Below are positions 2,709 through 59,456 of a stretch of 64,000 nt of DNA, piece after piece. Below the pieces are notes generated by a model, which saw only the letters and a list, made by a program, of their open reading frames with translations, was not told the origin of the DNA and ran no database searches. The stretch lies in assembly GCA_963838935.1 (NCBI GenBank), contig CAWITH010000035.1, forward strand, positions 84,536 to 148,535, in the 5' to 3' direction. Origin of the DNA: an uncultured Acidobacteriaceae bacterium (GTDB taxonomy: Bacteria > Acidobacteriota > Terriglobia > Terriglobales > Acidobacteriaceae). Each line of letters opens with the position of its first letter. Position 1 is the stretch's first letter. A program made the position numbers and the translations under genes.

Positions 2709-3780
2709 TTGTTCTCGCCACCATCGCCCAACTCAACGGTGTTCCACGTTCCACATCGCAGGCCGCGCGCCTTCCCAGAACTTCGTCGAGGTGACGAGGG
2801 TGCAATCCGTCCGCTGGACGAATCGAACGCACGTTCTGCTTCGTAAACAAATCGCCCTTCTTGATATCTTCGACCACAAACAGCGAGCGCCGAAACTTCC
2901 GGCTGTTGGCCTCGTGGAGTCCGGGGACAAGCTGGACCGAGCCGAGAGCCTTCTCGGCCGTGCGCACTGCTTCCACCATCGCCTTGAATTCTGCGGGTTC
3001 GAGCGAAAACGCGCTGTCCGGCCCGCCATCTGCTCGCCGCAGACAAAGATGTTTCTCGATGATGGAAGCTCCGAGCGCCACCGCGGCGACCGGAACCGCG
3101 ATTCCCATCGTGTGATCGGAAAGTCCCACCGGACAGCCGAAACGGCGCGCCAGTTCCGGAATCGTGAGCAGGTTTGCCTCTTCCGGCGGCGCCGGATAGG
3201 CGCTGGTGCATTTCAGCAACGCAATCTGAGTTGCACCGGCTCCGCTGGCCGCTTCCACCGCTTCGGCAATTTCCTCTTCGCTGGCCATTCCCGTGGACAT
3301 GATCATCGGCTTCCCGGTTCGAGCCATCTTCTGGATCAAGCCAATGTCCACCAGTTCAAACGATGCCACCTTGTGCGCCGGAACATTCATCTGTTCGAGA
3401 AAGTCGACAGCACTATCGTCGAACGCGCTCGAAAACAAATGCATTCCGAGTTCGCCGGCAATCTCTTTCAGCTTCGGCTGCCACTCCCAGGGCGTAAACG
3501 CTTCCTGGTAGAGGTCGTGAAGTGTGCGCCCATCCCACAGCGTGCCCCCCGTGATCTGAAAACATTCTTTGTCGCTGCGCAGCGTGATGGTATCGGCCGT
3601 GTAGGTCTGGAGTTTGACGGCGTCAGCGCCGGCGTCCTTGGCGGCGCGAAGAATCCGGACCGCCTGATCAAAGCTCTGATTGTGATTGGCGGAAAGCTCG
3701 GCAACGACATAGGTCCCGCAGCCCGGACCGACTCGCCTTCCAGCAATCATTATTTCTGTCGATGGTCTCTCACTCGGCAT
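2698..3780 (-). CDS. pseI: pseudaminic acid synthase (NeuB/PseI family)
   Basis: NeuB-family motifs VVAELSANHNQSFDQA and DAVKLQTY, plus a C-terminal SAF-like domain. Start placed at ATG 3780 (alternative 3750) rather than the longest ORF start 3819. Sits in a cluster with pseB, pseC and pseG/H. Confidence 0.85.
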   Translation of the reverse strand: MPSERPSTEIMIAGRRVGPGCGTYVVAELSANHNQSFDQAVRILRAAKDAGADAVKLQTYTADTITLRSDKECFQITGGTLWDGRTLHDLYQEAFTPWEWQPKLKEIAGELGMHLFSSAFDDSAVDFLEQMNVPAHKVASFELVDIGLIQKMARTGKPMIMSTGMASEEEIAEAVEAASGAGATQIALLKCTSAYPAPPEEANLLTIPELARRFGCPVGLSDHTMGIAVPVAAVALGASIIEKHLCLRRADGGPDSAFSLEPAEFKAMVEAVRTAEKALGSVQLVPGLHEANSRKFRRSLFVVEDIKKGDLFTKQNVRSIRPADGLHPRHLDEVLGRRAACDVERGTPLSWAMVARTTRS

Positions 3781-14612: not shown

Positions 14613-15329
14613 CTACACGTCCGCTTCGGGCGATGACCGCATTGGCTCAATCGCGTGCAGACCGCACTCCGTCTTGCTCGTGCCCGGCCAGCGTCCCGCC
14701 CTCGGATCTTCGCCCGGTCGGATGGCCCGTGTGCAATGTGTGCAACCGATGCTCGGATAATTCTGATCATGAAGAGAGTTATAAGGCACGCCGTGTTCGT
14801 GGAGATAGCGCCAAACTTGTTTTGCTGACCAGTCGGCGATCGGATTAACCTTCACCAGCCCGAACTTCACGTCCCACTCGATTTTGCGGACGTTCTTGCG
14901 AAATGAGGTCTGGTCGCGGCGGATACTAGTGATCCAGGCGTCTAATTCGCTCAGCTTGCGGCGGAGCGGCTCGACCTTCCGCAGGTTGCAGCATTGGTCG
15001 GGATCGCGGGCCCAAAGCGCCGTTCCGTGAACACGTTCCTGCTCCTCGGGCGAGAGCGCCGAAAACACTCGCTCGACTTTGATTTCATATCTTTGCTCGA
15101 TCCGGTCCATCAAGCTGTAGGTCTCGGGAAACAGGAATTCGGTATCAATGGTGAAAAGGCGAAAGTCCTTGCGTAAGCGCGAAGCCATATCAATCACCAC
15201 CATGCCCTCGGCGCCAAACGCCGACGAAATGGCCACTTCATTGCCAAAGGTTTCAAACGCCCAGGACAGCACACGCTGCGGATTCCAACTCTCTGCCGTC
15301 AACTGCACTTCTGCAATTTTGTCTTTCAC
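14613..15329 (-). CDS. cysH: adenylyl-sulfate (APS) reductase, thioredoxin-dependent, Fe-S type (CysH family)
   Basis: C-terminal KTECGLH catalytic motif plus the cysteine pairs CCNLRKVEPL and SIGCTHCT. These distinguish APS reductases from PAPS reductases. Confidence 0.85.
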   Translation of the reverse strand: MKDKIAEVQLTAESWNPQRVLSWAFETFGNEVAISSAFGAEGMVVIDMASRLRKDFRLFTIDTEFLFPETYSLMDRIEQRYEIKVERVFSALSPEEQERVHGTALWARDPDQCCNLRKVEPLRRKLSELDAWITSIRRDQTSFRKNVRKIEWDVKFGLVKVNPIADWSAKQVWRYLHEHGVPYNSLHDQNYPSIGCTHCTRAIRPGEDPRAGRWPGTSKTECGLHAIEPMRSSPEADV

Positions 15330-16165
15330 GCAATCGTATCCTCATTCACTCGTGGGTGCGTTTCTTGCGACAGGGCTGTTTTGAAAAGCATTTCGGGCGC
15401 GACAAATTCCGCCGCCATCGCGGCAGCATCGGCCAACCGCACGACTTTGCCAACGACCAGCAGCGTTGGCGACGCCAGTTGTGGCGCGCGATGCAGGTCC
15501 AGCACAGTCGTGCGATAGGTTCGCTGGTAACGGGTGGTGGCGCGCGAGATTATAGCGCAGGGTGTCTCACCAGCTACCCCGGCAGCCGTCAGCCTTCTGG
15601 CAATGTCCGAGTAATTCTGCCCCGGCATGTACATCACGAGCGTCGCTCCACACGCGACAAACTTGCTCCAGTCGGAGTCATCTTTCTCGGCAGCGCCTTC
15701 TCCCGAAGGGCGGCGTTCCGAGGCTCGATGGGCAGTGACCAGCACTAGCGCCGACGACGTTCGCCGATCCGTCAGCGGAATCTGTGCCGCAGCGGCCGCT
15801 CCCAGAGCCGAAGTCACGCCCGGAACAATCTCGAAAGCAATTTTGTTGCGGCGCAAGCATTCGATCTCTTCCCCGGCGCGTCCGAAAATCAGCGGATCCC
15901 CACCCTTTAACCGCACAACTTTCAGACCGGATGCCACCAGCGCAACCATCAAACCGTTGATCTCCCCTTGCAGGATTTTCTTTTTCCCGCAGCGTTTGCC
16001 CACGTTATGAATCTGGGCGGTCGACGGAATCAACTCCAGGACCTCCGGCGCAACCAGGTCGTCGTGCAGAACGGCGTCGGCGTTTCGCAGCAGCCGAAGC
16101 GCTTTCAACGTCAACAACTCTGGATCGCCCGGCCCCGCGCCCACCAGATAGACTTTTCCTGTCAT
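15326..16165 (-). CDS. cobA: uroporphyrinogen-III C-methyltransferase
   Basis: Begins MTGKVYLVGAGPGDPELLTLKALRLL. The start ATG 16165 overlaps the stop of the upstream gene (ATGA). The 110-aa N-terminal extension of the longest ORF is Arg/Gly-rich and was rejected. Confidence 0.85.
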   Translation of the reverse strand: MTGKVYLVGAGPGDPELLTLKALRLLRNADAVLHDDLVAPEVLELIPSTAQIHNVGKRCGKKKILQGEINGLMVALVASGLKVVRLKGGDPLIFGRAGEEIECLRRNKIAFEIVPGVTSALGAAAAAQIPLTDRRTSSALVLVTAHRASERRPSGEGAAEKDDSDWSKFVACGATLVMYMPGQNYSDIARRLTAAGVAGETPCAIISRATTRYQRTYRTTVLDLHRAPQLASPTLLVVGKVVRLADAAAMAAEFVAPEMLFKTALSQETHPRVNEDTIA

Positions 16166-16776
16166 GCTCCCTCTCTTTTCACAATCATTCCTTCGCGTAG
16201 CTGTGGAACCTTGGCCAGCGCCGCTTCGAACGCTTCCCGGCTTGCCAGGGAGTGCAGCAACTCCCACTTGCAGTCCTGATCGAGATTGCTGGCGAGAATG
16301 AGCCGTCGAGTCTCGCCCAGCTGCCGAACCCACTCCGCGTATCCCTCTCCAAACTGCCGTTCCAGTAGCCGCCGCAGTTTCTGCGCCAGGGCTGGACTTT
16401 GCCCATTGGTCGAAATCGCAATCTGCAGGTCTCCGCGCCGCACCACCGCGGGATAAAAGAAATCGCAATACTCCGGAACATCCGCCACGTTGCACAGCAC
16501 TCCGCGTCGCTGCGCCTCGCGATGAATGAGTTCGTTCAGCCGGCGCGAAGCCGTTGCCACCACGGCGAGATACTTGCTGTCGAGGTCAGTCGCCAGGAAA
16601 GAGCGCAGATCCAAATTGATCTTCCCTGCGCTGGCCCATGCACGGACTTGTTCGCCAGCCGTGAGCGCAACCACCTGGATATGTGCACCGGTGTCGATAA
16701 GCCCACCGATCTTGGGCTCGCCGACTTTGCCCGCGCCCACGACCAGGCACGGCTTCCCCGCGAGCTTCATGAACAT
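16162..16776 (-). CDS. precorrin-2 dehydrogenase / sirohydrochlorin ferrochelatase (CysG N-terminal / Met8-SirC-like)
   Basis: Begins MFMKLAGKPCLVVGAGKVGEPK (Rossmann fold), followed by LQIAISTNGQSPALA. The start at 16776 lies 11 nt after the sulfite reductase stop. Confidence 0.75.
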   Translation of the reverse strand: MFMKLAGKPCLVVGAGKVGEPKIGGLIDTGAHIQVVALTAGEQVRAWASAGKINLDLRSFLATDLDSKYLAVVATASRRLNELIHREAQRRGVLCNVADVPEYCDFFYPAVVRRGDLQIAISTNGQSPALAQKLRRLLERQFGEGYAEWVRQLGETRRLILASNLDQDCKWELLHSLASREAFEAALAKVPQLREGMIVKREGA

Positions 16777-16786
16777 TGGGAACAGG

Positions 16787-18517
16787 CTAGTCACCGTCTC
16801 CTCCAGCCAATTGCGCCAGACTTTCAGATCCGGCGGCACTGGCCGCGGGCATCTCGCGCGGGACCGCGTCCACGACCTCGCCCGCCAGGAACTCCCGCAA
16901 CTCCGTGTCGGTGTGGCGGGCAAAAAACTGCCGCAGGTTCTCACCCGCCGTACGCGCCGCGAGATAATGCCGCAGCAATCTCTCGATCGCATCCGGAACC
17001 TGGGTCGCAAGGCAGCGATATCCCACGGGCCGTGCCGTCGCCTGATGCAGTCCGAGCGCGCCGCCCAGGCAGAAGTAATACGCATCGACCAGGCGCCCAT
17101 CGACCTTCATCTTTTTGCCGTCGATGCCGATGTCGGCAATCCAGTGCTGTCCGCAACTGTTCGGGCATCCCGTAACGTGCAGCTTCAGGTGCTGATCGAA
17201 TCCGGGCAGGCGCTCTTCCAGTTCTTCCACCAGCCAGCGGGAAAAGCTCTTGGTTTCCGTGATCGCGAGCTTGCAGAATTCCGTTCCGCTGCACGCTATG
17301 GTGCCGCGAAAAAAAGACGAGCCGCCTACGCGCAACCCAATGCCATCCAGTTCCTTGGCCAAGTCCTCCGCATTCAACCGGGGGACGTTCACGATGAGCA
17401 GGTTCTGCATGTTGGTCGTACGCAGTTCGCCGCCTGCGAAGCGGTCGGCGAGATCGGCAGCGGCGTGCATCTGCTCCGCCATAATTCGCCCGCGGAGCAC
17501 CGCCGCTCCCACGTAGCTGTAGCCCGGTTGCTTCTGCGGATGAATTCCGACGTGGTCGCGATAAACATCCGCGGGTGGCGTTTCCTCGACCGCAGGATCG
17601 AATTCAAATCCAATCCGCCGCTGTAGTTCGTCCAGAAAACTCTCTGCCGTCCACCCATGCCGCAGGAAAAGAAATTTCAGCCGCGCCCGCTCGCGATGTT
17701 CCCGCAACACATCTGAGTCGCGAAACAGCTCGGCAATCCCCTTAATGGCGGGCAAAACCTGGTGCCAACCGACGAACGCGTTTAATCGCGCTCCCAGGTA
17801 CGGTTCGGTGGAGAGCCCTCCGGCAACTCGCAAGGAAAAACCCGTTTCGGGCGTTCCGCCCAGCGTGCGCGTCGCTGCCGTCAACCCAACATCATTAATC
17901 TCCGGATACGGGCACCACACCCGGCATCCCGTAATCGAAATCTTGAATTTTCGGGGAAGGTTGTAAAAGTCGCCATTCCCTGCCAGCATTCGCGACGCTT
18001 CCAGCGCTAAGGGCGAAGCATCGCAAATCTCGTCCGCGTCCACCCCCGCGACCGGGCATCCAGTGACATTTCGCGTGACATCGCCGCAAGCGCTCGTCGT
18101 GTTCAATCCCACGCGTCCGAGCGCTTCAAGCAGATCCGGAAGCGCCTCGATCGTGACCCAGTGCAACTGAATGTTTTGGCGTACGGTGATGTCGGCAATG
18201 CCGTGCGCATAGCGGCGGGCGAGGTCGGCAATGGTTCGCAGTTGTTCGGAGCGCAGCAGACCGTTGGGGATACGGATTCTCACCATGAAGCGTTGCAGAG
18301 CCCGGCCTTCCCCGCCCTGGCCGCCGGTTACGCCCGCTCCATCGCCCTGCGTGTACACGCCCCACCAGCGAAAGTAGGTCCCCAGCCACTCCGGCGGAAT
18401 GGACTCGAACCCCTCGCGCGCGAAGCGCCTTATTTCCTCCAGGCCTTCCCATGGATTCTTGGCGCGCTTAAGTCGCTCGACTCTCTGCGCCTTGGTTTCT
18501 GTGGCTGTGTTCGTCAT
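16787..18517 (-). CDS. sir: ferredoxin-type sulfite reductase hemoprotein (nitrite/sulfite reductase family)
   Basis: 576 aa. N-terminal NPWEGLEEIRRFAREG...YFRWWGVYTQ and siroheme/4Fe-4S cysteine clusters (TGCPNSCGQ). Operon context with cysH and siroheme synthesis genes. Confidence 0.85.
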   Translation of the reverse strand: MTNTATETKAQRVERLKRAKNPWEGLEEIRRFAREGFESIPPEWLGTYFRWWGVYTQGDGAGVTGGQGGEGRALQRFMVRIRIPNGLLRSEQLRTIADLARRYAHGIADITVRQNIQLHWVTIEALPDLLEALGRVGLNTTSACGDVTRNVTGCPVAGVDADEICDASPLALEASRMLAGNGDFYNLPRKFKISITGCRVWCPYPEINDVGLTAATRTLGGTPETGFSLRVAGGLSTEPYLGARLNAFVGWHQVLPAIKGIAELFRDSDVLREHRERARLKFLFLRHGWTAESFLDELQRRIGFEFDPAVEETPPADVYRDHVGIHPQKQPGYSYVGAAVLRGRIMAEQMHAAADLADRFAGGELRTTNMQNLLIVNVPRLNAEDLAKELDGIGLRVGGSSFFRGTIACSGTEFCKLAITETKSFSRWLVEELEERLPGFDQHLKLHVTGCPNSCGQHWIADIGIDGKKMKVDGRLVDAYYFCLGGALGLHQATARPVGYRCLATQVPDAIERLLRHYLAARTAGENLRQFFARHTDTELREFLAGEVVDAVPREMPAASAAGSESLAQLAGGDGD

Positions 18518-18560
18518 AGTCGGTCACCCCGGACTGTTTCCCCCACGCTGTCTGAGCCCC

Positions 18561-18600
18561 AAAAAACAAAAACCCACCGCCAGCTTGATCTGGCGATGGG
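18561..18600 (-). terminator. intrinsic terminator / attenuator hairpin in the sir leader
   Basis: On the minus strand, CCCATCGCCAG-ATCAAG-CTGGCGGTGGG forms an 11-bp stem with one G-U pair, followed by TTTTTGTTTTTT. It ends 43 nt upstream of the sir ATG. Confidence 0.65.
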
Positions 18601-18629
18601 TTATAAGTGCCGGTATTTAAAGAGTTACT

Positions 18630-18719
18630 TTAGGTCGGCAGCCTCCCCGCGCCAGTGCACACGCACACGCAACAACAACAAGCGCAGACGCACATCGCGG
18701 AAAGATGCCGACTTGACAT
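18630..18719 (-). CDS. candidate poly-cysteine leader peptide (MSSRHLSAMCVCACCCCVCVCTGAGRLPT)
   Basis: Short ORF with two in-frame ATGs (18719, 18695), 8 Cys codons within 12 codons, and a TAA stop at 18630-18632. It lies between a promoter-like sequence and the terminator, upstream of a cysteine-biosynthesis operon. Confidence 0.5.
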   Translation of the reverse strand: MSSRHLSAMCVCACCCCVCVCTGAGRLPT

Positions 18720-18729
18720 AGTGATTTGC

Positions 18730-18758
18730 ATTCCAGGTTGACCAATTCCAACGGTCAA
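18730..18758 (-). promoter_or_regulatory. sigma70-like promoter candidate for the Cys leader / sir operon
   Basis: Minus strand TTGACC-N17-TGGAAT. The -35 hexamer is part of a 7-bp inverted repeat (TTGACCgttggaattGGTCAA). The predicted start site is only a few nt upstream of ATG 18719. Confidence 0.3.
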
Positions 18759-18874
18759 CAAGCTTCGATAGGGGCTTGGACGCATAACTTCGATCCCGCG
18801 ATTCAGAATTTTTCGCGCCATCCGTTCACGGCGCGGGGGGCAGGAGATAATCCCGGGCTGCCCAGTCAGAAAAA

Positions 18875-19891
18875 TTATCTCGCGTATCCGTCTGGATGAG
18901 TGCGATGCCACTGCCACGCGCTTTCAACGATCGTTTTCAAATTCGGAAATTTCGGCTGCCAGCCCAAGTCGCGACGAATTTTTTCCGAGCCGGCAATTAA
19001 CGCTGCTGGATCTCCAGCGCGGCGAGGCGATTCGATCACCGGGATGGCATGCCCGGTAACCTCCCGCGCCACTTCGACGACCTGGCGCACGCTGAATCCC
19101 TGCCCGTTTCCCAGGTTATAGATGAGCGGACTGGAATTCTCGCGCGCATCCTCCAAGGCATCGAGCGCCAGCAGGTGCGCCCGCGCCAGATCGCTGACGT
19201 GGATGTAATCGCGGACGCAGGTGCCATCGGGCGTCGGATAGTCTGTCCCGAAAATGTTCACGTGTTCCGCGCGGCCGAGGGCGACTTGCAGAATCCGCGG
19301 GATGAGATGCGTCTCCGGCTGGTGCGCTTCCCCTTTGTCTGGACGGGAAGCGCCGGCAGCATTGAAATACCGCAGGCTGGCATAGCGCAGGCCGTGAATC
19401 TGGTGGAACCAGGCCAGCATGCGCTCCACCAGCAGCTTCGATTCACCGTAGGCATTCGTTGGATGGATGGGATCATCCTCCCCAATCGGAGTGCGGTCGG
19501 GATTGCCAAACAGCGCGGCCGTCGACGAAAAAACGAAACGTTTGACCCCAGCGGCCAACATCGCTTCAAGCAGCGTCAGCGCATTCGCCGTGTTGTTGCG
19601 GAAAAATTCTTCCGGAGCCTTCATCGACTCGCCCGCTTCGATCAGCGCCGCAAAATGCATGACGGCTTCGATCCCGCGCAATCGGAACACCTGGTCAAGG
19701 TGATGGCGGTCCGCCAATTCGCCTACGATCAGTTCAGCGTTCTTCGGCACTGCCTGACGATAGCCGCGACTCAGGTTATCGAAGACGACAACCTGGTGCC
19801 CTGCCTGCAATAGCTCCTCAGCAACCACGCTGCCGATGTAGCCTGCTCCACCCGTAACTAGAACTTTCATGTTCTGCATGATTTGCCGCAA
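18875..19891 (-). CDS. galE: UDP-glucose 4-epimerase
   Basis: Motifs VTGGAGYIGS and YGESKL (YxxxK); ~330 aa SDR. The probable true start is MKVLV at 19870. Confidence 0.85.
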   Translation of the reverse strand: MRQIMQNMKVLVTGGAGYIGSVVAEELLQAGHQVVVFDNLSRGYRQAVPKNAELIVGELADRHHLDQVFRLRGIEAVMHFAALIEAGESMKAPEEFFRNNTANALTLLEAMLAAGVKRFVFSSTAALFGNPDRTPIGEDDPIHPTNAYGESKLLVERMLAWFHQIHGLRYASLRYFNAAGASRPDKGEAHQPETHLIPRILQVALGRAEHVNIFGTDYPTPDGTCVRDYIHVSDLARAHLLALDALEDARENSSPLIYNLGNGQGFSVRQVVEVAREVTGHAIPVIESPRRAGDPAALIAGSEKIRRDLGWQPKFPNLKTIVESAWQWHRTHPDGYAR

Positions 19892-19930: not shown

Positions 19931-19966
19931 AAAACGTCCCGGAGGAGATATCCGGGACGTTTTTTC
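19931..19966 (-). terminator. bidirectional intrinsic terminator
   Basis: AAAACGTCCCGG-aggagata-CCGGGACGTTTT is a perfect stem flanked by T-runs on both strands. It lies 22 nt downstream of the stop of the 19988-20917 gene. Confidence 0.7.
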
Positions 19967-19987: not shown

Positions 19988-20917
19988 TCAGTGCGAAATG
20001 GCCGCGAACAACGGCGAGCTCATCAATGATTGGAACTTCTGGTCGTCGCTCTTGAAGTGAATCTGCACGTTCGAGCTGTCGGAATCGACGGTGGTGGCAT
20101 CAATGGCAGTCTTCTCGACCGGACTGGCGTTGAGCTTCTTGTAGAGCATGCCGGCCTTTACGATCGTGGAAAGCGTCGCTGCTGTCATCGAATCGGCCGT
20201 GAGCACGCTTAAATCAAAATTCACTCCACTCGAAAAGTTCATGGTGTAGCGGGAAGCCAGAATGCGTTTCTTGATGGTCTCGTAGTCGGCAACCTTGGCG
20301 GCATCGCCCATCGCCGAATACATCATGGCCTGGGTTCCCTTCTGGTCGAGGATGCTCCACACGGGCTCACTATCAACCGCCGACATCTGCTCCGTCATCA
20401 CCGGATTGGAATCGAGCGACGTGCGCTTGCCGTCGCGGGTATCGAGCGCGCTGTGCAACCCTGCCTCATCGCTAAAGGCCAGTGTGTTGTCGTCCAGAAA
20501 CGTCATCACCAGACCGCTCTCCATCGGATAAATGCTCGCGGTGCCGTATTTGGTGGCCGCGATCTTTTTCACCTTCAATTTCTTGAGAACGGCCTTGGCC
20601 GAGAAGGACCCTTGCGCGATGTAGACGGTCTGAACACCCTTCTTCTCCGTCCGGAACGAGGCGACATCGAGCTGGTCGAGATCGCGCTCGACGTCAATGC
20701 CGATACGCTTCAGGGCGGTCTCGGATTCCTTCACGTTTTCGGGCAGAACTTTTTCTTTGAGCGCCTGTGCGGTAGGAGAATCCTTGAGCGCGCGGTAGTC
20801 GATGCCGAACATCTGCTGAACTTCGGAAGGCACCATGGAACGTGCCGATGAGGCGATCGGCATGGCATAGCCAGCCGTCGTGCACAAAAGCAAAGCCGCG
20901 AAAAACAAATTCTTCAT
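19988..20917 (-). CDS. secreted hypothetical protein
   Basis: Start set at MKNLFFAALLLCTTAGYA, a signal-peptide-like N-terminus. Coding-like composition, no recognisable family. Confidence 0.6.
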   Translation of the reverse strand: MKNLFFAALLLCTTAGYAMPIASSARSMVPSEVQQMFGIDYRALKDSPTAQALKEKVLPENVKESETALKRIGIDVERDLDQLDVASFRTEKKGVQTVYIAQGSFSAKAVLKKLKVKKIAATKYGTASIYPMESGLVMTFLDDNTLAFSDEAGLHSALDTRDGKRTSLDSNPVMTEQMSAVDSEPVWSILDQKGTQAMMYSAMGDAAKVADYETIKKRILASRYTMNFSSGVNFDLSVLTADSMTAATLSTIVKAGMLYKKLNASPVEKTAIDATTVDSDSSNVQIHFKSDDQKFQSLMSSPLFAAISH

Positions 20918-21128
20918 AAATTTCCTCAAAAACGAATTCCTCAAAACGAGTCTGCACGGTTTAGATGCAAACCGCAAAGCCTGCGTTGGCGACCTTTGAC
21001 GGTGTTTAAGCTGTTCTGAGACCATTTTAGTCCCTAAATCCGTGAGGCATGGCGGTAACTAAAGTGCGTCCTCCGCGCTCGGTCTTAGAACGGTCGAACC
21101 GGGGTAGCTTGCGTGGAAAGATGAACGA

Positions 21129-21644
21129 CTAGCGGCTTGGTGGACGGGCAGGAGGGCTACTGTTAGGGACTTCTTTCTCTGTTTCTTTCAACGCCTTAAC
21201 TAAACGGATCAATGCGTCTGCCGCTCTGAGCTGGTCTCCGGGGGACAGGGCGTTCTTGCTGGGTTTACTTTTCAGGTAACCGTAGTTCTCGATGGGTGCA
21301 CCTGATGCTTGCGTCGTGTCGATACTCAGATAGGCTTCTCCAAGTAGCCCCTCGGTATCGATTCCGGCAATCGAATCTTGCGGAATCCTCACTTTGTAGG
21401 TCGTAGTCAGAGCCATTTCGACTTCCGCTGGGCAACTTCTGTCCTGTGGATTGGCTCGAACGCTGCGCACGGTCCCGATTTCCACTCCGGCAATCCGAAC
21501 TGGAGCCCCCACCTTAAGTCCCCCAGCATCGTCAAAGCAGGACTTGATGTCTTGACGGGAATAACGCAGTGGGTTAATAAACAAACTGCCAATGGCAGCA
21601 ACCCCGACGACAATCATCAGCGCGAGGATCGATTTTCTCAGCAC
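21129..21644 (-). CDS. MlaD/MCE-domain protein
   Basis: 171 aa with an N-terminal TM helix and the MCE-domain motif GLKVGAPVRIAGVEIGTVRSV. Confidence 0.7.
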   Translation of the reverse strand: MLRKSILALMIVVGVAAIGSLFINPLRYSRQDIKSCFDDAGGLKVGAPVRIAGVEIGTVRSVRANPQDRSCPAEVEMALTTTYKVRIPQDSIAGIDTEGLLGEAYLSIDTTQASGAPIENYGYLKSKPSKNALSPGDQLRAADALIRLVKALKETEKEVPNSSPPARPPSR

Positions 21645-21646
21645 GG

Positions 21647-23122
21647 TTACACCCTCAGAGCGAGCGCCCGTTTCCGCGTCTCGCTCACAAACCCCTCATC
21701 CTTCAGCGAATCCAGATTGATCTCGACATTCGCCAGCGCGCCTTCGAGTGCGGCTTTTGCCAGAGCAATCGCCGTCGTCAGATCGGATTTCATGTTGGGG
21801 TTGGTAATTGGCTTCAACGCGGCGGCGATCTTCGCCACTTCAACGACTCTTTCGGCAACGCCCAGAGGAACGCTGGTTGCTTGTTTGAGAGCCGCGCCAA
21901 TCGCGGCATCGCCGTCCGAAGATTCTTTGGCCGACTTGTAGGCCTTCATCACGGAATTGTAGGACGCGGCATCAGCGTCGATCGCAACCTTAAGTTCCTC
22001 GCGAAGCTGGCCAAGCCGGGCGATGGCTTCGCTGAGCTGGCTTTCGTACTGCAGATACGCCTTTTTGCCGCGTGACATGGACGCGACCATGCTTGCGAGT
22101 CCCGCGGCCATGGCGCCGCTAGCGGCAGCGGCGCTGCCTCCTCCGGGAGTCGCCGTGGGAGCGGCCAGTTGTTCAATGAAAGGTTCGACCCCGGCGCGCA
22201 GCCCACCGACGGCCATCTTTCCTCCCATCACGGCGGTCAGGCGGTTTTCCAGAATCAGCGAGGAGTCGAAATTTTCTACTTGCAGGAACCATTCCGCTGC
22301 CTGCTCGAGCGCCTTCTTTGGAATAAGTCCCACGATCTCGCTGGAGACTGGGATGACGCCGTAGCGCGCGGCCTCGCGTTTTACGTATTCGAAGACGCGG
22401 TGGATGGGAGTCTGTTCGAAGTCGGTCAGGTTCATCGAGACCTGAGCCATGCCGCGCACCAGGAATCCAGCGCCCTTGACGAAGCGCAGGCCGCCATTCG
22501 AAGCGCGCACCGCCTTCGCGACCTTCTTGGCGATATCAACGTCCGGCGTATTCAGGAAGACGTTATAGGCAATGAGAAATTTGCGCGCGCCGACAACGGT
22601 GGCCCCAGCCGTCGGATGCACGCGAGGTTCGCCGAAATCAGGCTTGCGCGCGGGATTGGTGGCAATTTCCGCGCGGATGCCTTCGAACTGGCCGCGGCGA
22701 ATATTCTCCAGGTTCTGGCGTTCGGGCGTGGCTGCAGCGGCCTCATAGAGATAAACCGGAATCTGGAAGCGCTTTGCGATTTCGGCTCCAACGTGGCGCG
22801 CCATGGCGACGCAGTCTTCGATGGTGACCCCGTCAATCGGGATAAACGGCACGACGTCGGCTGCGCCCATGCGCGGATGCGCGCCTTGATGTTTGGTGAG
22901 GTCGATCAACTCGGCAGCTTTCCCTACGCCGCGAATGGCCGCTTCCTGAATGGCTTCTCGTTCGCCTACCAGCGTGATGACGCAGCGGTTGTGGTCGGAA
23001 TCCATCTCGCGGTCGAGAAGATAGACTCCGGGGATTTTCATGGCTTCGATAATGGCGTCAACTTTGGCCGCGTCGCGGCCTTCGGAAAAATTCGGTACGC
23101 ATTCCACCAGAGTACTGGGCAT
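21647..23122 (-). CDS. ftcD: bifunctional glutamate formimidoyltransferase / formimidoyltetrahydrofolate cyclodeaminase
   Basis: N-terminal VECVPNFSEGRD transferase motif. The C-terminal ~190 aa carry GGGSAAAASGAMAAGLASMV, typical of the cyclodeaminase domain. Confidence 0.85.
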   Translation of the reverse strand: MPSTLVECVPNFSEGRDAAKVDAIIEAMKIPGVYLLDREMDSDHNRCVITLVGEREAIQEAAIRGVGKAAELIDLTKHQGAHPRMGAADVVPFIPIDGVTIEDCVAMARHVGAEIAKRFQIPVYLYEAAAATPERQNLENIRRGQFEGIRAEIATNPARKPDFGEPRVHPTAGATVVGARKFLIAYNVFLNTPDVDIAKKVAKAVRASNGGLRFVKGAGFLVRGMAQVSMNLTDFEQTPIHRVFEYVKREAARYGVIPVSSEIVGLIPKKALEQAAEWFLQVENFDSSLILENRLTAVMGGKMAVGGLRAGVEPFIEQLAAPTATPGGGSAAAASGAMAAGLASMVASMSRGKKAYLQYESQLSEAIARLGQLREELKVAIDADAASYNSVMKAYKSAKESSDGDAAIGAALKQATSVPLGVAERVVEVAKIAAALKPITNPNMKSDLTTAIALAKAALEGALANVEINLDSLKDEGFVSETRKRALALRV

Positions 23123-52077: not shown

Positions 52078-52166
52078 TGGTGCCCGGAGACGGAATCGAA
52101 CCGTCACGTCCTGTTACGGACCCGGGATTTTAAGTCCCGTGCGTCTGCCAGTTTCGCCATCCGGGC
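52078..52166 (-). tRNA. tRNA-Leu (anticodon UAA), long variable arm, CCA encoded
   Basis: The minus strand reads GCCCGGATGGCGAAACTGGCAGACGCACGGGACTTAAAATCCCGGGTCCGTAACAGGACGTGACGGTTCGATTCCGTCTCCGGGCACCA. It has a 7-bp acceptor stem, anticodon loop CUUAAAA and a T-loop GTTCGATTC. Confidence 0.9.
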
Positions 52167-59345: not shown

Positions 59346-59456
59346 AAAAGTCAGGCACCGGCGACCCACTGCACACGAAAGAGCCCGTTACCGTTGCTTC
59401 CTTCCGGACCTGGCGGGGTTGGCGGGAAAACGTCGCGCGGAACCGATGCCTGACTC
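59346..59456 (-). ncRNA. ffs: signal recognition particle RNA (small 4.5S type)
   Basis: The minus strand contains CCAGGTCCGGAAGGAAGCAACGG, the conserved domain IV with GGAA tetraloop. It is closed by the long-range helix GTCAGGCA...TGCCTGAC and followed by TTTT. Confidence 0.85.

Follow-up and report, generated by a model that had tools for sequence, protein, structure and literature searches.

The stretch of DNA analyzed here (the window) comprises 64,000 nucleotides (nt) of contig CAWITH010000035.1 from an uncultured Acidobacteriaceae bacterium. On its minus strand lie four genes beginning with sir, which encodes a ferredoxin-type sulfite reductase, and a galE-like gene for a nicotinamide adenine dinucleotide (NAD)-dependent epimerase (Pfam) lies upstream. 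Between galE and sir is a leader that contains a short open reading frame (ORF) with a run of cysteine codons, followed by a terminator (Table 1). An earlier note on this DNA had proposed that the leader is a Cys-sensing attenuator. Our results, which were obtained from sequence comparisons and RNA folding models, support this proposal: the leader is likely to be a ribosome-mediated attenuator of transcription, sensing charged tRNA-Cys and controlling sir, the sirC-like gene, the methylase gene and cysH.

The operon had been described in the earlier note as encoding sulfite reductase, siroheme synthesis and adenosine 5'-phosphosulfate (APS) reductase. The Pfam matches and the CC...CxxC motif agree with this description, the siroheme label covering the sirC-like gene. 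The relatives of the window Sir are recorded as "sulfite reductase (ferredoxin)", and the CC...CxxC motif marks APS reductases. An apparent 291-nt gap after sir proved to be the sirC-like gene, which was masked by a longer spurious ORF (16162-17100). The true start of the methylase gene is the ATG at 16165, and the GTG of cysH at 15329 overlaps the methylase stop codon. Since the stops and starts of the last three genes overlap, the four genes look translationally coupled. The genes that would be regulated supply sulfide and the siroheme cofactor for cysteine synthesis.

Table 1. Elements of the leader and genes of the sir operon in the window, in the order of transcription
Feature	Positions	Strand	Description
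-35 hexamer TTGACC	18753..18758	(-)	read from sequence
-10 hexamer TGGAAT (family consensus TAGAAT)	18730..18735	(-)	17-nt spacer from -35
Leader ORF	18630..18719	(-)	29 codons and TAA; translation MSSRHLSAMCVCACCCCVCVCTGAGRLPT
Segment 1, GUCGGCAUCUUUCCGCG	18696..18712	(-)	codons 3-8; 5' strand of the anti-antiterminator helix
Regulatory Cys codons	18657..18692	(-)	codons 10-21; 8 Cys in 12 codons
Segment 2, CUGGCGCGGGGAGGCUGCCGAC	18634..18655	(-)	switch strand, in ORF codons 22-29; alternative partners: segment 1, or terminator 5' arm plus spacer
Spacer element CGGCA	18608..18612	(-)	pairs with UGCCG (18640-18636), inner antiterminator helix; support moderate
Segment 3, terminator 5' arm, CCCAUCGCCAG (DNA CCCATCGCCAG)	18590..18600	(-)	common to antiterminator and terminator
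Terminator loop	18584..18589	(-)	6 nt
Segment 4, terminator 3' arm, CUGGCGGUGGG (DNA CTGGCGGTGGG)	18573..18583	(-)	pairs with segment 3
U-tract T5GT6	18561..18572	(-)	followed by 43 nt to the sir ATG (18517)
sir, ferredoxin-type sulfite reductase	16787..18517	(-)	first regulated gene; Pfam NIR_SIR, NIR_SIR_ferr
sirC-like gene (precorrin-2 dehydrogenase / ferrochelatase type)	16162..16776	(-)	Pfam NAD_binding_7 and Sirohm_synth_M
Uroporphyrinogen-III methyltransferase-like gene	15326..16165	(-)	TP_methylase; ATG overlaps the sirC-like stop
cysH, APS-reductase type	14613..15329	(-)	Pfam PAPS_reduct; CC...CxxC motif

Read on the minus strand, the leader ORF starts with the ATG at 18719-18717, possesses a second in-frame ATG at 18695 and ends with the TAA at 18632-18630. 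These positions and the count of eight Cys codons in twelve had been given in the earlier note, and all of them matched the sequence. Within the ORF, the codons TGT TGT TGT TGC occupy positions 18680-18669. The sequence TGTTGTTG was identical in all 81 aligned leaders (alignment A1). For TGYTGYTGYTGY, 0.13 occurrences are expected per window and two were observed, the second copy being inside a coding region. TGT accounts for 57% of the Cys codons of the leaders, as compared with 12% in eight genes of the window that are supported by Pfam.

The Sir protein was used to scan one genome per species, and 80 loci were obtained (77-90% identity), all from the Acidobacteriota, Terriglobales (Acidobacteriaceae, Candidatus Sulfotelmatobacter and similar); a few of the 80 bins carry probably wrong labels. 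Within 500 nt upstream of sir, a short ORF (sORF) with 5-9 Cys in 12 codons was found in 79 of the 80 loci, and the decayed ORF of the remaining locus (L002) has four. The consensus of the leader peptide is M..S.NLRAMCCCTCCCCACVCSGAGRLLT. A terminator follows the ORF stop after 23-35 nt in all 80 loci, six of which show one mismatch or a shorter T-run. We also scanned metagenomes with a pattern that consisted of the Cys run and the terminator arm and did not require sir. Among the 120 stretches listed, at least 19 were genuine leaders. Of the metagenome leaders with downstream sequence, 18 of 18 sit directly before sir (74-87% identity, among the matches listed). Since this pattern required the same terminator arm, divergent paralogous leaders would be missed by the scan. 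The Cys ORF and the terminator are accordingly found together in 80/80 genome loci and at least 19 metagenome loci, which is the co-conservation that the earlier note had proposed to look for in relatives. No second copy of the leader was detected in the 64-kb window, and no other convincing Cys-run sORF was detected in the flanks of the 80 loci. The Sir relatives with at least 85% identity, among the matches listed, were all from metagenome-assembled genomes of Terriglobales or from metagenomes.

The gene order around these leaders was compared. The sirC-like gene, the methylase gene and cysH lie downstream on the same strand in 77 of the 80 loci. The galE gene is upstream in 7, and in 51 of the other 73 loci the longest ORF upstream has the opposite orientation. 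The leader unit travels with the sir operon, not with galE.

We analyzed the reading frame of the leader in the 81 aligned sequences. Among the three frames, an ATG after the -10 box is conserved only in the Cys frame. In this frame the stop codon falls at one fixed column, where it is TAA in 64 leaders, TAG in 16 and TGA in one. The tail of the peptide, ...SGAGRL(L/P)T, is conserved, and the same stretch is the RNA segment CUGGCGCGGGGAGGCUGC(C/U)GAC. The leader of locus L007 (2788-3000) separates the two: a 1-nt insertion after the CCCC codons causes a +1 frameshift, by which the peptide tail becomes RIAVRWRGEVADLK and the new stop codon lies two codons past the usual position. The nucleotides of segment 2 and the spacer are unchanged despite the frameshift. 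Since the frameshift destroys the peptide tail and keeps the nucleotides, segment 2 is conserved as RNA. Furthermore, the F/L and K/R differences among the peptides mostly follow the pairing partners: TTT occurs with AAA in six of the eight AAA leaders, and CTT occurs with AGG.

A 95-amino-acid (aa) ORF starting with GTG (18630-18917, minus strand) reaches from the galE end across the promoter and into the leader ORF, and is an artefact. When it was used as the query, no similar protein was found among 5.8 billion proteins. Thus, the leader peptide is effectively unannotated.

The terminator had been described in the earlier note as a stem at 18573-18600 followed by T5GT6 and, after 43 nt, the sir ATG; these data match the sequence. 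In the window, 29 nt separate the leader ORF stop from the terminator 5' arm. The hairpin (13 pairs, 8 of them G-C) ranked first of the terminator-like sites in a 12-kb consensus scan. It folds at -23.4 kcal/mol in the window, as compared with a family median of -26.6 kcal/mol. In all loci, the family terminators possess 12-15 bp followed by a U-run, and the arms are almost invariant. Twelve terminator pairs were checked, and the rare changes were compensatory: A-U to C-G or G-C, C-G to U-A, and A-U to G-C twice. The 243-nt leader as a whole folds at -99.4 kcal/mol (z = -3.89 versus dinucleotide shuffles). The distance from the end of the U-tract to the sir ATG is 17-136 nt in most loci. The possibility that the hairpin is the terminator of galE was considered and rejected, because galE is upstream in so few of the loci.

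In five loci (L054, L055, L075, L076 and L077; approximately 2990-3000 in locus coordinates), no more than 6-11 nt separate the end of the U-tract from the sir ATG. In these loci, the G-rich 3' arm (GGCGGUGGG) is the sole candidate ribosome-binding site (RBS) for sir. This arrangement suggests that transcriptional and translational control are combined there.

Segment 2 was assigned two alternative partners in the earlier note, which placed CTGGCGCGGGGAG at 18655-18643 and CTTTCCGCG at 18704-18696. Both positions are correct. The helix between them (1:2) exists, but its length of 9 bp was an underestimate: in the minimum free energy (MFE) structure of the window, segment 1 (18712-18696) pairs with 18651-18634 through 17 bp with one bulge. 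When the leader ORFs were folded alone, each of the 80 formed one long hairpin, with energies of -35 to -43 kcal/mol in the sampled examples and with the CCCC codons in the apical loop. The first 2-10 nt of the ORF, including the AUG, were unpaired in most of the sampled hairpin folds. Since the register of the 1:2 pairing varies among subclades, a swap test was used instead of column counts. The mean duplex energy between the 5' half and segment 2 was -23.1 kcal/mol for native combinations, -20.5 kcal/mol for swapped combinations and -14.1 kcal/mol for shuffled 5' halves. None of 5000 permutations matched the native value.

A small 5-bp hairpin was also observed around the CCCC codons (A1 columns 109-113 with 134-139; 18686-18682 with 18670-18666 in the window). 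One of its pairs varies (A-U in 33, G-U in 21 and G-C in 13 leaders) and couples the wobble base of the fourth Cys codon to a codon for Thr or Ala. This hairpin might be a pause hairpin, or it might merely keep the Cys run exposed.

The second partner of segment 2 is the terminator 5' arm (2:3, antiterminator). The element CUGGCGCGGGG of segment 2, which lies inside the leader ORF, copies the terminator 3' arm in a weakened form. Its core CUGGCG-CG-GGG (18655-18645) mirrors CUGGCG-GU-GGG of the 3' arm. Since segment 2 copies the 3' arm, it can pair with the 5' arm through 6+3 bp around a 2x2 internal loop. The earlier note had proposed this 6+3 bp pairing. The pairing holds, and it is more extensive than proposed, and an inner helix with the spacer element is added. 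The outer and inner pairings are formed in 94.9% of the cells of alignment A1, as compared with 26-57% when the pairing partners were slid by 1-3 alignment columns. The inner helix (columns 165-169 with 199-203) is paired in 92.8% of the cells. At the pair 168/200, U-A was found in 31 leaders, U-G in 29 and C-G in 16. In one relative (L067), a three-way change keeps both structures: segment 2 has CUGACA, the 5' arm CGUCAG and the 3' arm CUGACG.

The energies of the alternative folds were compared, as suggested in the earlier note. When the RNA from segment 2 through the 5' arm was folded alone, the energy was -24.2 kcal/mol in the window and the median of the family was -22.8 kcal/mol. In the window, the 2:3 pairing equals the terminator in stability and clearly exceeds the 6+3 bp estimated in the earlier note. 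In single-sequence MFE folds, the outer helix was formed in 97 of 100 and the inner helix in 81 of 100. The leader stop codon, at a constant distance of 23 nt from the segment 2 start, was base-paired in 74 of the 100 folds. RNAalifold applied to the whole leader recovered the terminator and the small hairpin at the CCCC codons, and missed the long-range helices. The pairing register and the spacer length differ among the subclades, so RNAalifold misses these helices; for this reason, we used single-sequence folds, the swap test and column counts. These sequences show the parts of the leader, how well they are conserved and their potential for alternative pairing, with compensatory changes, and the 1:2 / 2:3 / 3:4 topology given in the earlier note is supported by the conserved pairings, the three-way change in L067 and the swap test.

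To model the ribosome, 30 nt of the leader were masked, from 18 nt upstream of the first base of the A-site codon to 11 nt downstream. In this model, all 81 leaders form the terminator when they are of full length and free of ribosomes. When the ribosome masks a Cys codon in the A site on the nascent transcript, a pairing of at least 6 nt between the 5' arm and the ORF is possible in 81/81 leaders, and on average 84% of the Cys codons free this pairing. In contrast, when the ribosome masks the stop codon, the pairing of the 5' arm with the ORF is formed in only 12/81 leaders. This behavior is what the earlier note had predicted, namely that stalling would free segment 2 and that a ribosome at the stop codon would cover it.

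The promoter region suggests where the leader transcript would begin. TTGAC(G/C/A) is present at -35 in 64 of the 67 leaders whose extracted stretch reaches that position. The -10 box is TAGAAT in 44 of the 81 leaders and TAG(T/C)AT in 16 more, and the spacer between -35 and -10 is 17 or 18 nt in 76 of the 81. The leader ATG lies 7-10 nt past the -10 hexamer in 71 of the 81 leaders. Since an ATG at this distance leaves no room for a Shine-Dalgarno (SD) sequence, the leader ORF is probably leaderless or nearly so, the transcription start being placed by the geometry of the promoter.

A 7-bp inverted repeat, GTTGACC/GGTCAAC (18759-18753 and 18743-18737, minus strand), spans the -35 box and the promoter spacer, and some of the relatives possess it in a 5-bp form (GTTGA/TCAAC). 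As an operator conserved in the family, this repeat was not supported: the mean arm length was 4.03 in the family and 3.58 in shuffles, which is not significant. The repeat could be an operator or could be due to chance.

From these results, we infer that the leader is translated, that its transcription starts next to the AUG, that the ribosome stalls within it and that the operon responds to cysteine. In the model we propose, transcription would start at, or a few nt upstream of, the AUG of the leader ORF. In the OFF fold, segment 1 would pair with segment 2, the terminator (3:4) would be free to form, and RNA polymerase would halt at the U-tract before reaching sir. When Cys-tRNA is ample, the ribosome would reach the stop codon, which lies inside the antiterminator, and would cover segment 2 and the spacer, leading to the OFF state. 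In a leader that is not translated, segment 2 would be locked in the 1:2 helix and the terminator would also form. When Cys-tRNA is scarce, the ribosome would stall at the early Cys codons and sit on segment 1, by which segment 2 would be freed. The freed segment 2 would capture the terminator 5' arm as it emerges; no terminator would form, and sir, the sirC-like gene, the methylase gene and cysH would be transcribed.

A more specific form of this model is possible but somewhat doubtful. In this form, the element would be a leaderless classical attenuator, in which 70S ribosomes would initiate at the AUG forming the 5' end of the nascent transcript when this is no longer than a few nt, and the terminator 3' arm would serve as the sir RBS in the five loci with a short distance to the sir ATG.

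Several results weigh against the attenuator model. RNAalifold applied de novo to the realigned antiterminator region finds the outer helix only. The interior of the antiterminator folds at -22.4 kcal/mol, and shuffled interiors fold at -19.6 +/- 3.8 kcal/mol, so that little is gained; moreover, since the leader sequences are related, the shuffle statistics are inflated. The paired columns are nearly invariant, so there are few true covariation events. The model requires a start without an SD sequence, and we found no literature on leaderless translation in Acidobacteria. Without a ribosome, the truncated RNA has the pairing between the 5' arm and the ORF in 33/81 leaders, and 1:2 dominates in only 48/81. 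Thus, the 1:2 lock does not prevail in every leader when folding is at equilibrium. Of the stalls masked in the window, those at Cys codons one to three are the only ones by which segment 2 is freed. Finally, the terminator is the MFE structure of the full-length RNA even with a stalled ribosome. Since the terminator wins in the full-length RNA, antitermination must be kinetic, that is, the 5' arm must be captured before the 3' arm is made. The same kinetic asymmetry is known for the trp attenuator of Escherichia coli.

Other explanations of the same leader were weighed. The hairpin may act mainly by hiding the sir RBS, as in a translational attenuator of the mycobacterial type, and not as a terminator. 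The polycysteine leaderless sORFs of Mycobacterium smegmatis are described as working in this way (10.1101/834739), and in the five loci with the U-tract 6-11 nt from the sir ATG the 3' arm could be a hidden SD sequence. However, a textbook terminator with a U-run stands clear of the ATG in the window and most loci, and the Cys run has its partner inside the sORF hairpin and not at the sir RBS. This explanation is quite unlikely; translational control could be a second layer in some lineages, not a replacement. An untranslated structured RNA, such as a riboswitch or a protein-binding leader, would explain the extensive and conserved RNA structure, and the Cys codons would then be incidental to a U/G-rich loop. 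The codon variation is compatible with this, since TGT/TGC changes are synonymous in both the Cys frame and the overlapping Leu frame; they are therefore not discriminating alone and cannot prove translation. On the other hand, the ATG is at a fixed distance from the promoter and the stop column varies only among stop codons, both in one frame. In addition, the leader matched no Rfam family, the loop has no conserved core like a ligand pocket beyond the codon run, and the occurrence of Cys codons before a cysteine-pathway operon would be a coincidence. We consider an untranslated RNA very improbable.

Translation might also serve to produce the peptide itself. A functional Cys-rich micropeptide, either binding metal or sulfide or being the precursor of a modified peptide, whose own small transcript ends at the hairpin, would fit the strong conservation of the peptide, including non-Cys residues such as those of its tail. 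Nevertheless, the conserved tail coincides with segment 2, whose nucleotides persist in L007 through the frameshift that destroys the peptide, and the F/L and K/R differences mostly track the base-pairing partners. The element was found only before sir in the loci, their flanks and the listed metagenome matches, and the search with the 95-aa extended ORF gave no homologous protein among the 5.8 billion. A micropeptide function is highly improbable on these grounds. As for the frame GTG CGT CTG CGC TTG TTG..., by which leucine or arginine would be sensed, it is open in the window and ends with the TAA at 18626-18624. However, the two non-Cys frames have an ATG downstream of the -10 box in only 0/81 and 23/81 leaders, and their stops are scattered over variable positions. 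The regulated genes are unrelated to Leu or Arg. Conservation of both the ATG and the position of the stop codon is seen in the Cys frame alone, which leaves the Leu/Arg frame unsupported, in line with the choice of frame in the earlier note, and sensing of these amino acids is extremely improbable.

The attenuator model was compared with known systems. Judged from the sequence, all the features of a classical trp/his-type attenuator are present. As in the attenuators of E. coli and Salmonella (trp, his, leu, thr, ilv and pheA), the leader ORF is rich in codons for the end product, the segments are arranged as 1:2 / 2:3 / 3:4, the terminator lies just before the first structural gene, and a ribosome terminating at the stop codon is in a position to block the antiterminator. 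Unlike these systems, the Terriglobales element concerns cysteine, belongs to the Acidobacteriota, begins about 10 nt from the -10 box without an SD sequence and is probably leaderless. Its leader showed no sequence similarity to any Rfam leader. With the Rfam 15 covariance models, among them those of known leaders, SAM riboswitches and T-boxes, the best E value in 18300-19100 was 0.55 or worse, far under the gathering scores. In the literature, we found no classical attenuator of a Cys biosynthetic operon, and to our knowledge none has been described. A full-text literature search gave nothing relevant on leader peptides or attenuation in Acidobacteria, sulfate assimilation or sulfite reductase.

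Poly-Cys upstream ORFs (uORFs) had been mentioned in the earlier note for mycobacteria, and they are indeed described (10.1101/834739). In this system, polycysteine leaderless sORFs unmask the SD sequence of the next gene (Canestrari et al. 2020, 10.1101/834739); this SD sequence is the pairing partner of the Cys tract, and a reporter gave no transcription termination (10.1101/834739). According to the authors, no earlier description existed of attenuation by a uORF in response to cysteine (10.1101/834739). The targets named include cysA2 and cysK1-cysE, and sir and cysH are absent from the main text (10.1101/834739). Mycobacterial Cys leaders had been predicted earlier, and no terminators were found (Seliverstov et al. 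2005, PMC1262725). A 2026 paper on Mycobacterium tuberculosis still cites the polycysteine system as translational attenuation. The Terriglobales leader shares with the mycobacterial sORFs the Cys run, a short first cistron, a cysteine/sulfur operon and the presumed tRNA-Cys signal, and it may share the leaderless start. It differs in having a conserved terminator and antiterminator core, a Cys run located in a hairpin loop and an unrelated sequence. Pairing of the Cys tract with a downstream SD sequence in the absence of termination, which characterizes the mycobacterial system, was not found in the Terriglobales leader.

The other system to be compared, and the sole Cys candidate of the terminator type that we found elsewhere, is uORFC-8-2, upstream of the tRNA synthetase gene cysS in Rhodobacterales, for which a Cys uORF with a terminator stem and a U-run was predicted to act by Cys-tRNA attenuation (Brewer et al. 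2021, PMC8632094). Because of this prediction, the statement of the earlier note that no terminator-based Cys attenuator is described stands only for the Terriglobales lineage and the sir operon. uORFC-8-2 has two tandem Cys codons near positions 14-15 and a two-stem structure, precedes cysS, belongs to the Alphaproteobacteria and is a prediction only. In contrast, the Terriglobales element has 5-9 Cys codons in nearly all genome loci (79/80) and sir downstream in 80/80 genomes and 18/18 listed metagenome loci, and its sequence and architecture are unrelated. The Terriglobales element is outside both the mycobacterial family and the uORFC-8-2 family.

Further features were observed around the leader and the operon. 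Many database entries of close Sir homologues (P0034, P0037, P0068, P0103, P0108 and others) are 586-614 aa long, as compared with 571-576 aa, which suggests that their starts were called too far upstream, in the terminator/leader region. Between a 345-aa ORF and galE, there is another terminator-like hairpin (19931-19963, minus strand; 13 pairs, AAAACGTCCCGGA...TCCGGGACGTTTT). Since the interval from galE to the leader promoter contains no comparable terminator, readthrough from galE would end at the attenuator terminator. The 345-aa ORF (19988-21025, minus strand) has no Pfam match and adjoins a gene with an MlaD domain (21129-21644); a formiminotransferase-cyclodeaminase gene (21647-23122) is located near both. 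In the whole window, the only Rfam matches at gathering level were a bacterial small signal recognition particle (SRP) RNA (59352-59449, minus strand; 65.3 bits) and a tRNA-Leu(TAA) (52078-52166, minus strand).

The predicted Cys attenuator of the sulfate-reduction/siroheme operon is conserved across Terriglobales, unannotated and outside Rfam. The mechanism of attenuation itself will not surprise a specialist. As a candidate cysteine-responsive switch of about 160 nt, the element may be of use, and it may serve as an annotation marker for Terriglobales genomes. It also offers a clean example in which attenuation can be studied on an mRNA that is probably leaderless. If the leaderless form of the model is true, promoter firing, SD-independent initiation and the charge of Cys-tRNA would all be read by one 160-nt device, which would be the first mechanistically defined cis-regulatory RNA of the Acidobacteriota. 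Almost no regulatory RNAs of this phylum were found described in the literature. Cysteine has been a gap among the amino acids under classical leader-peptide attenuation, and the Terriglobales element would fill it, in front of the sulfate-reduction and siroheme genes of a dominant and poorly understood phylum of soil bacteria.

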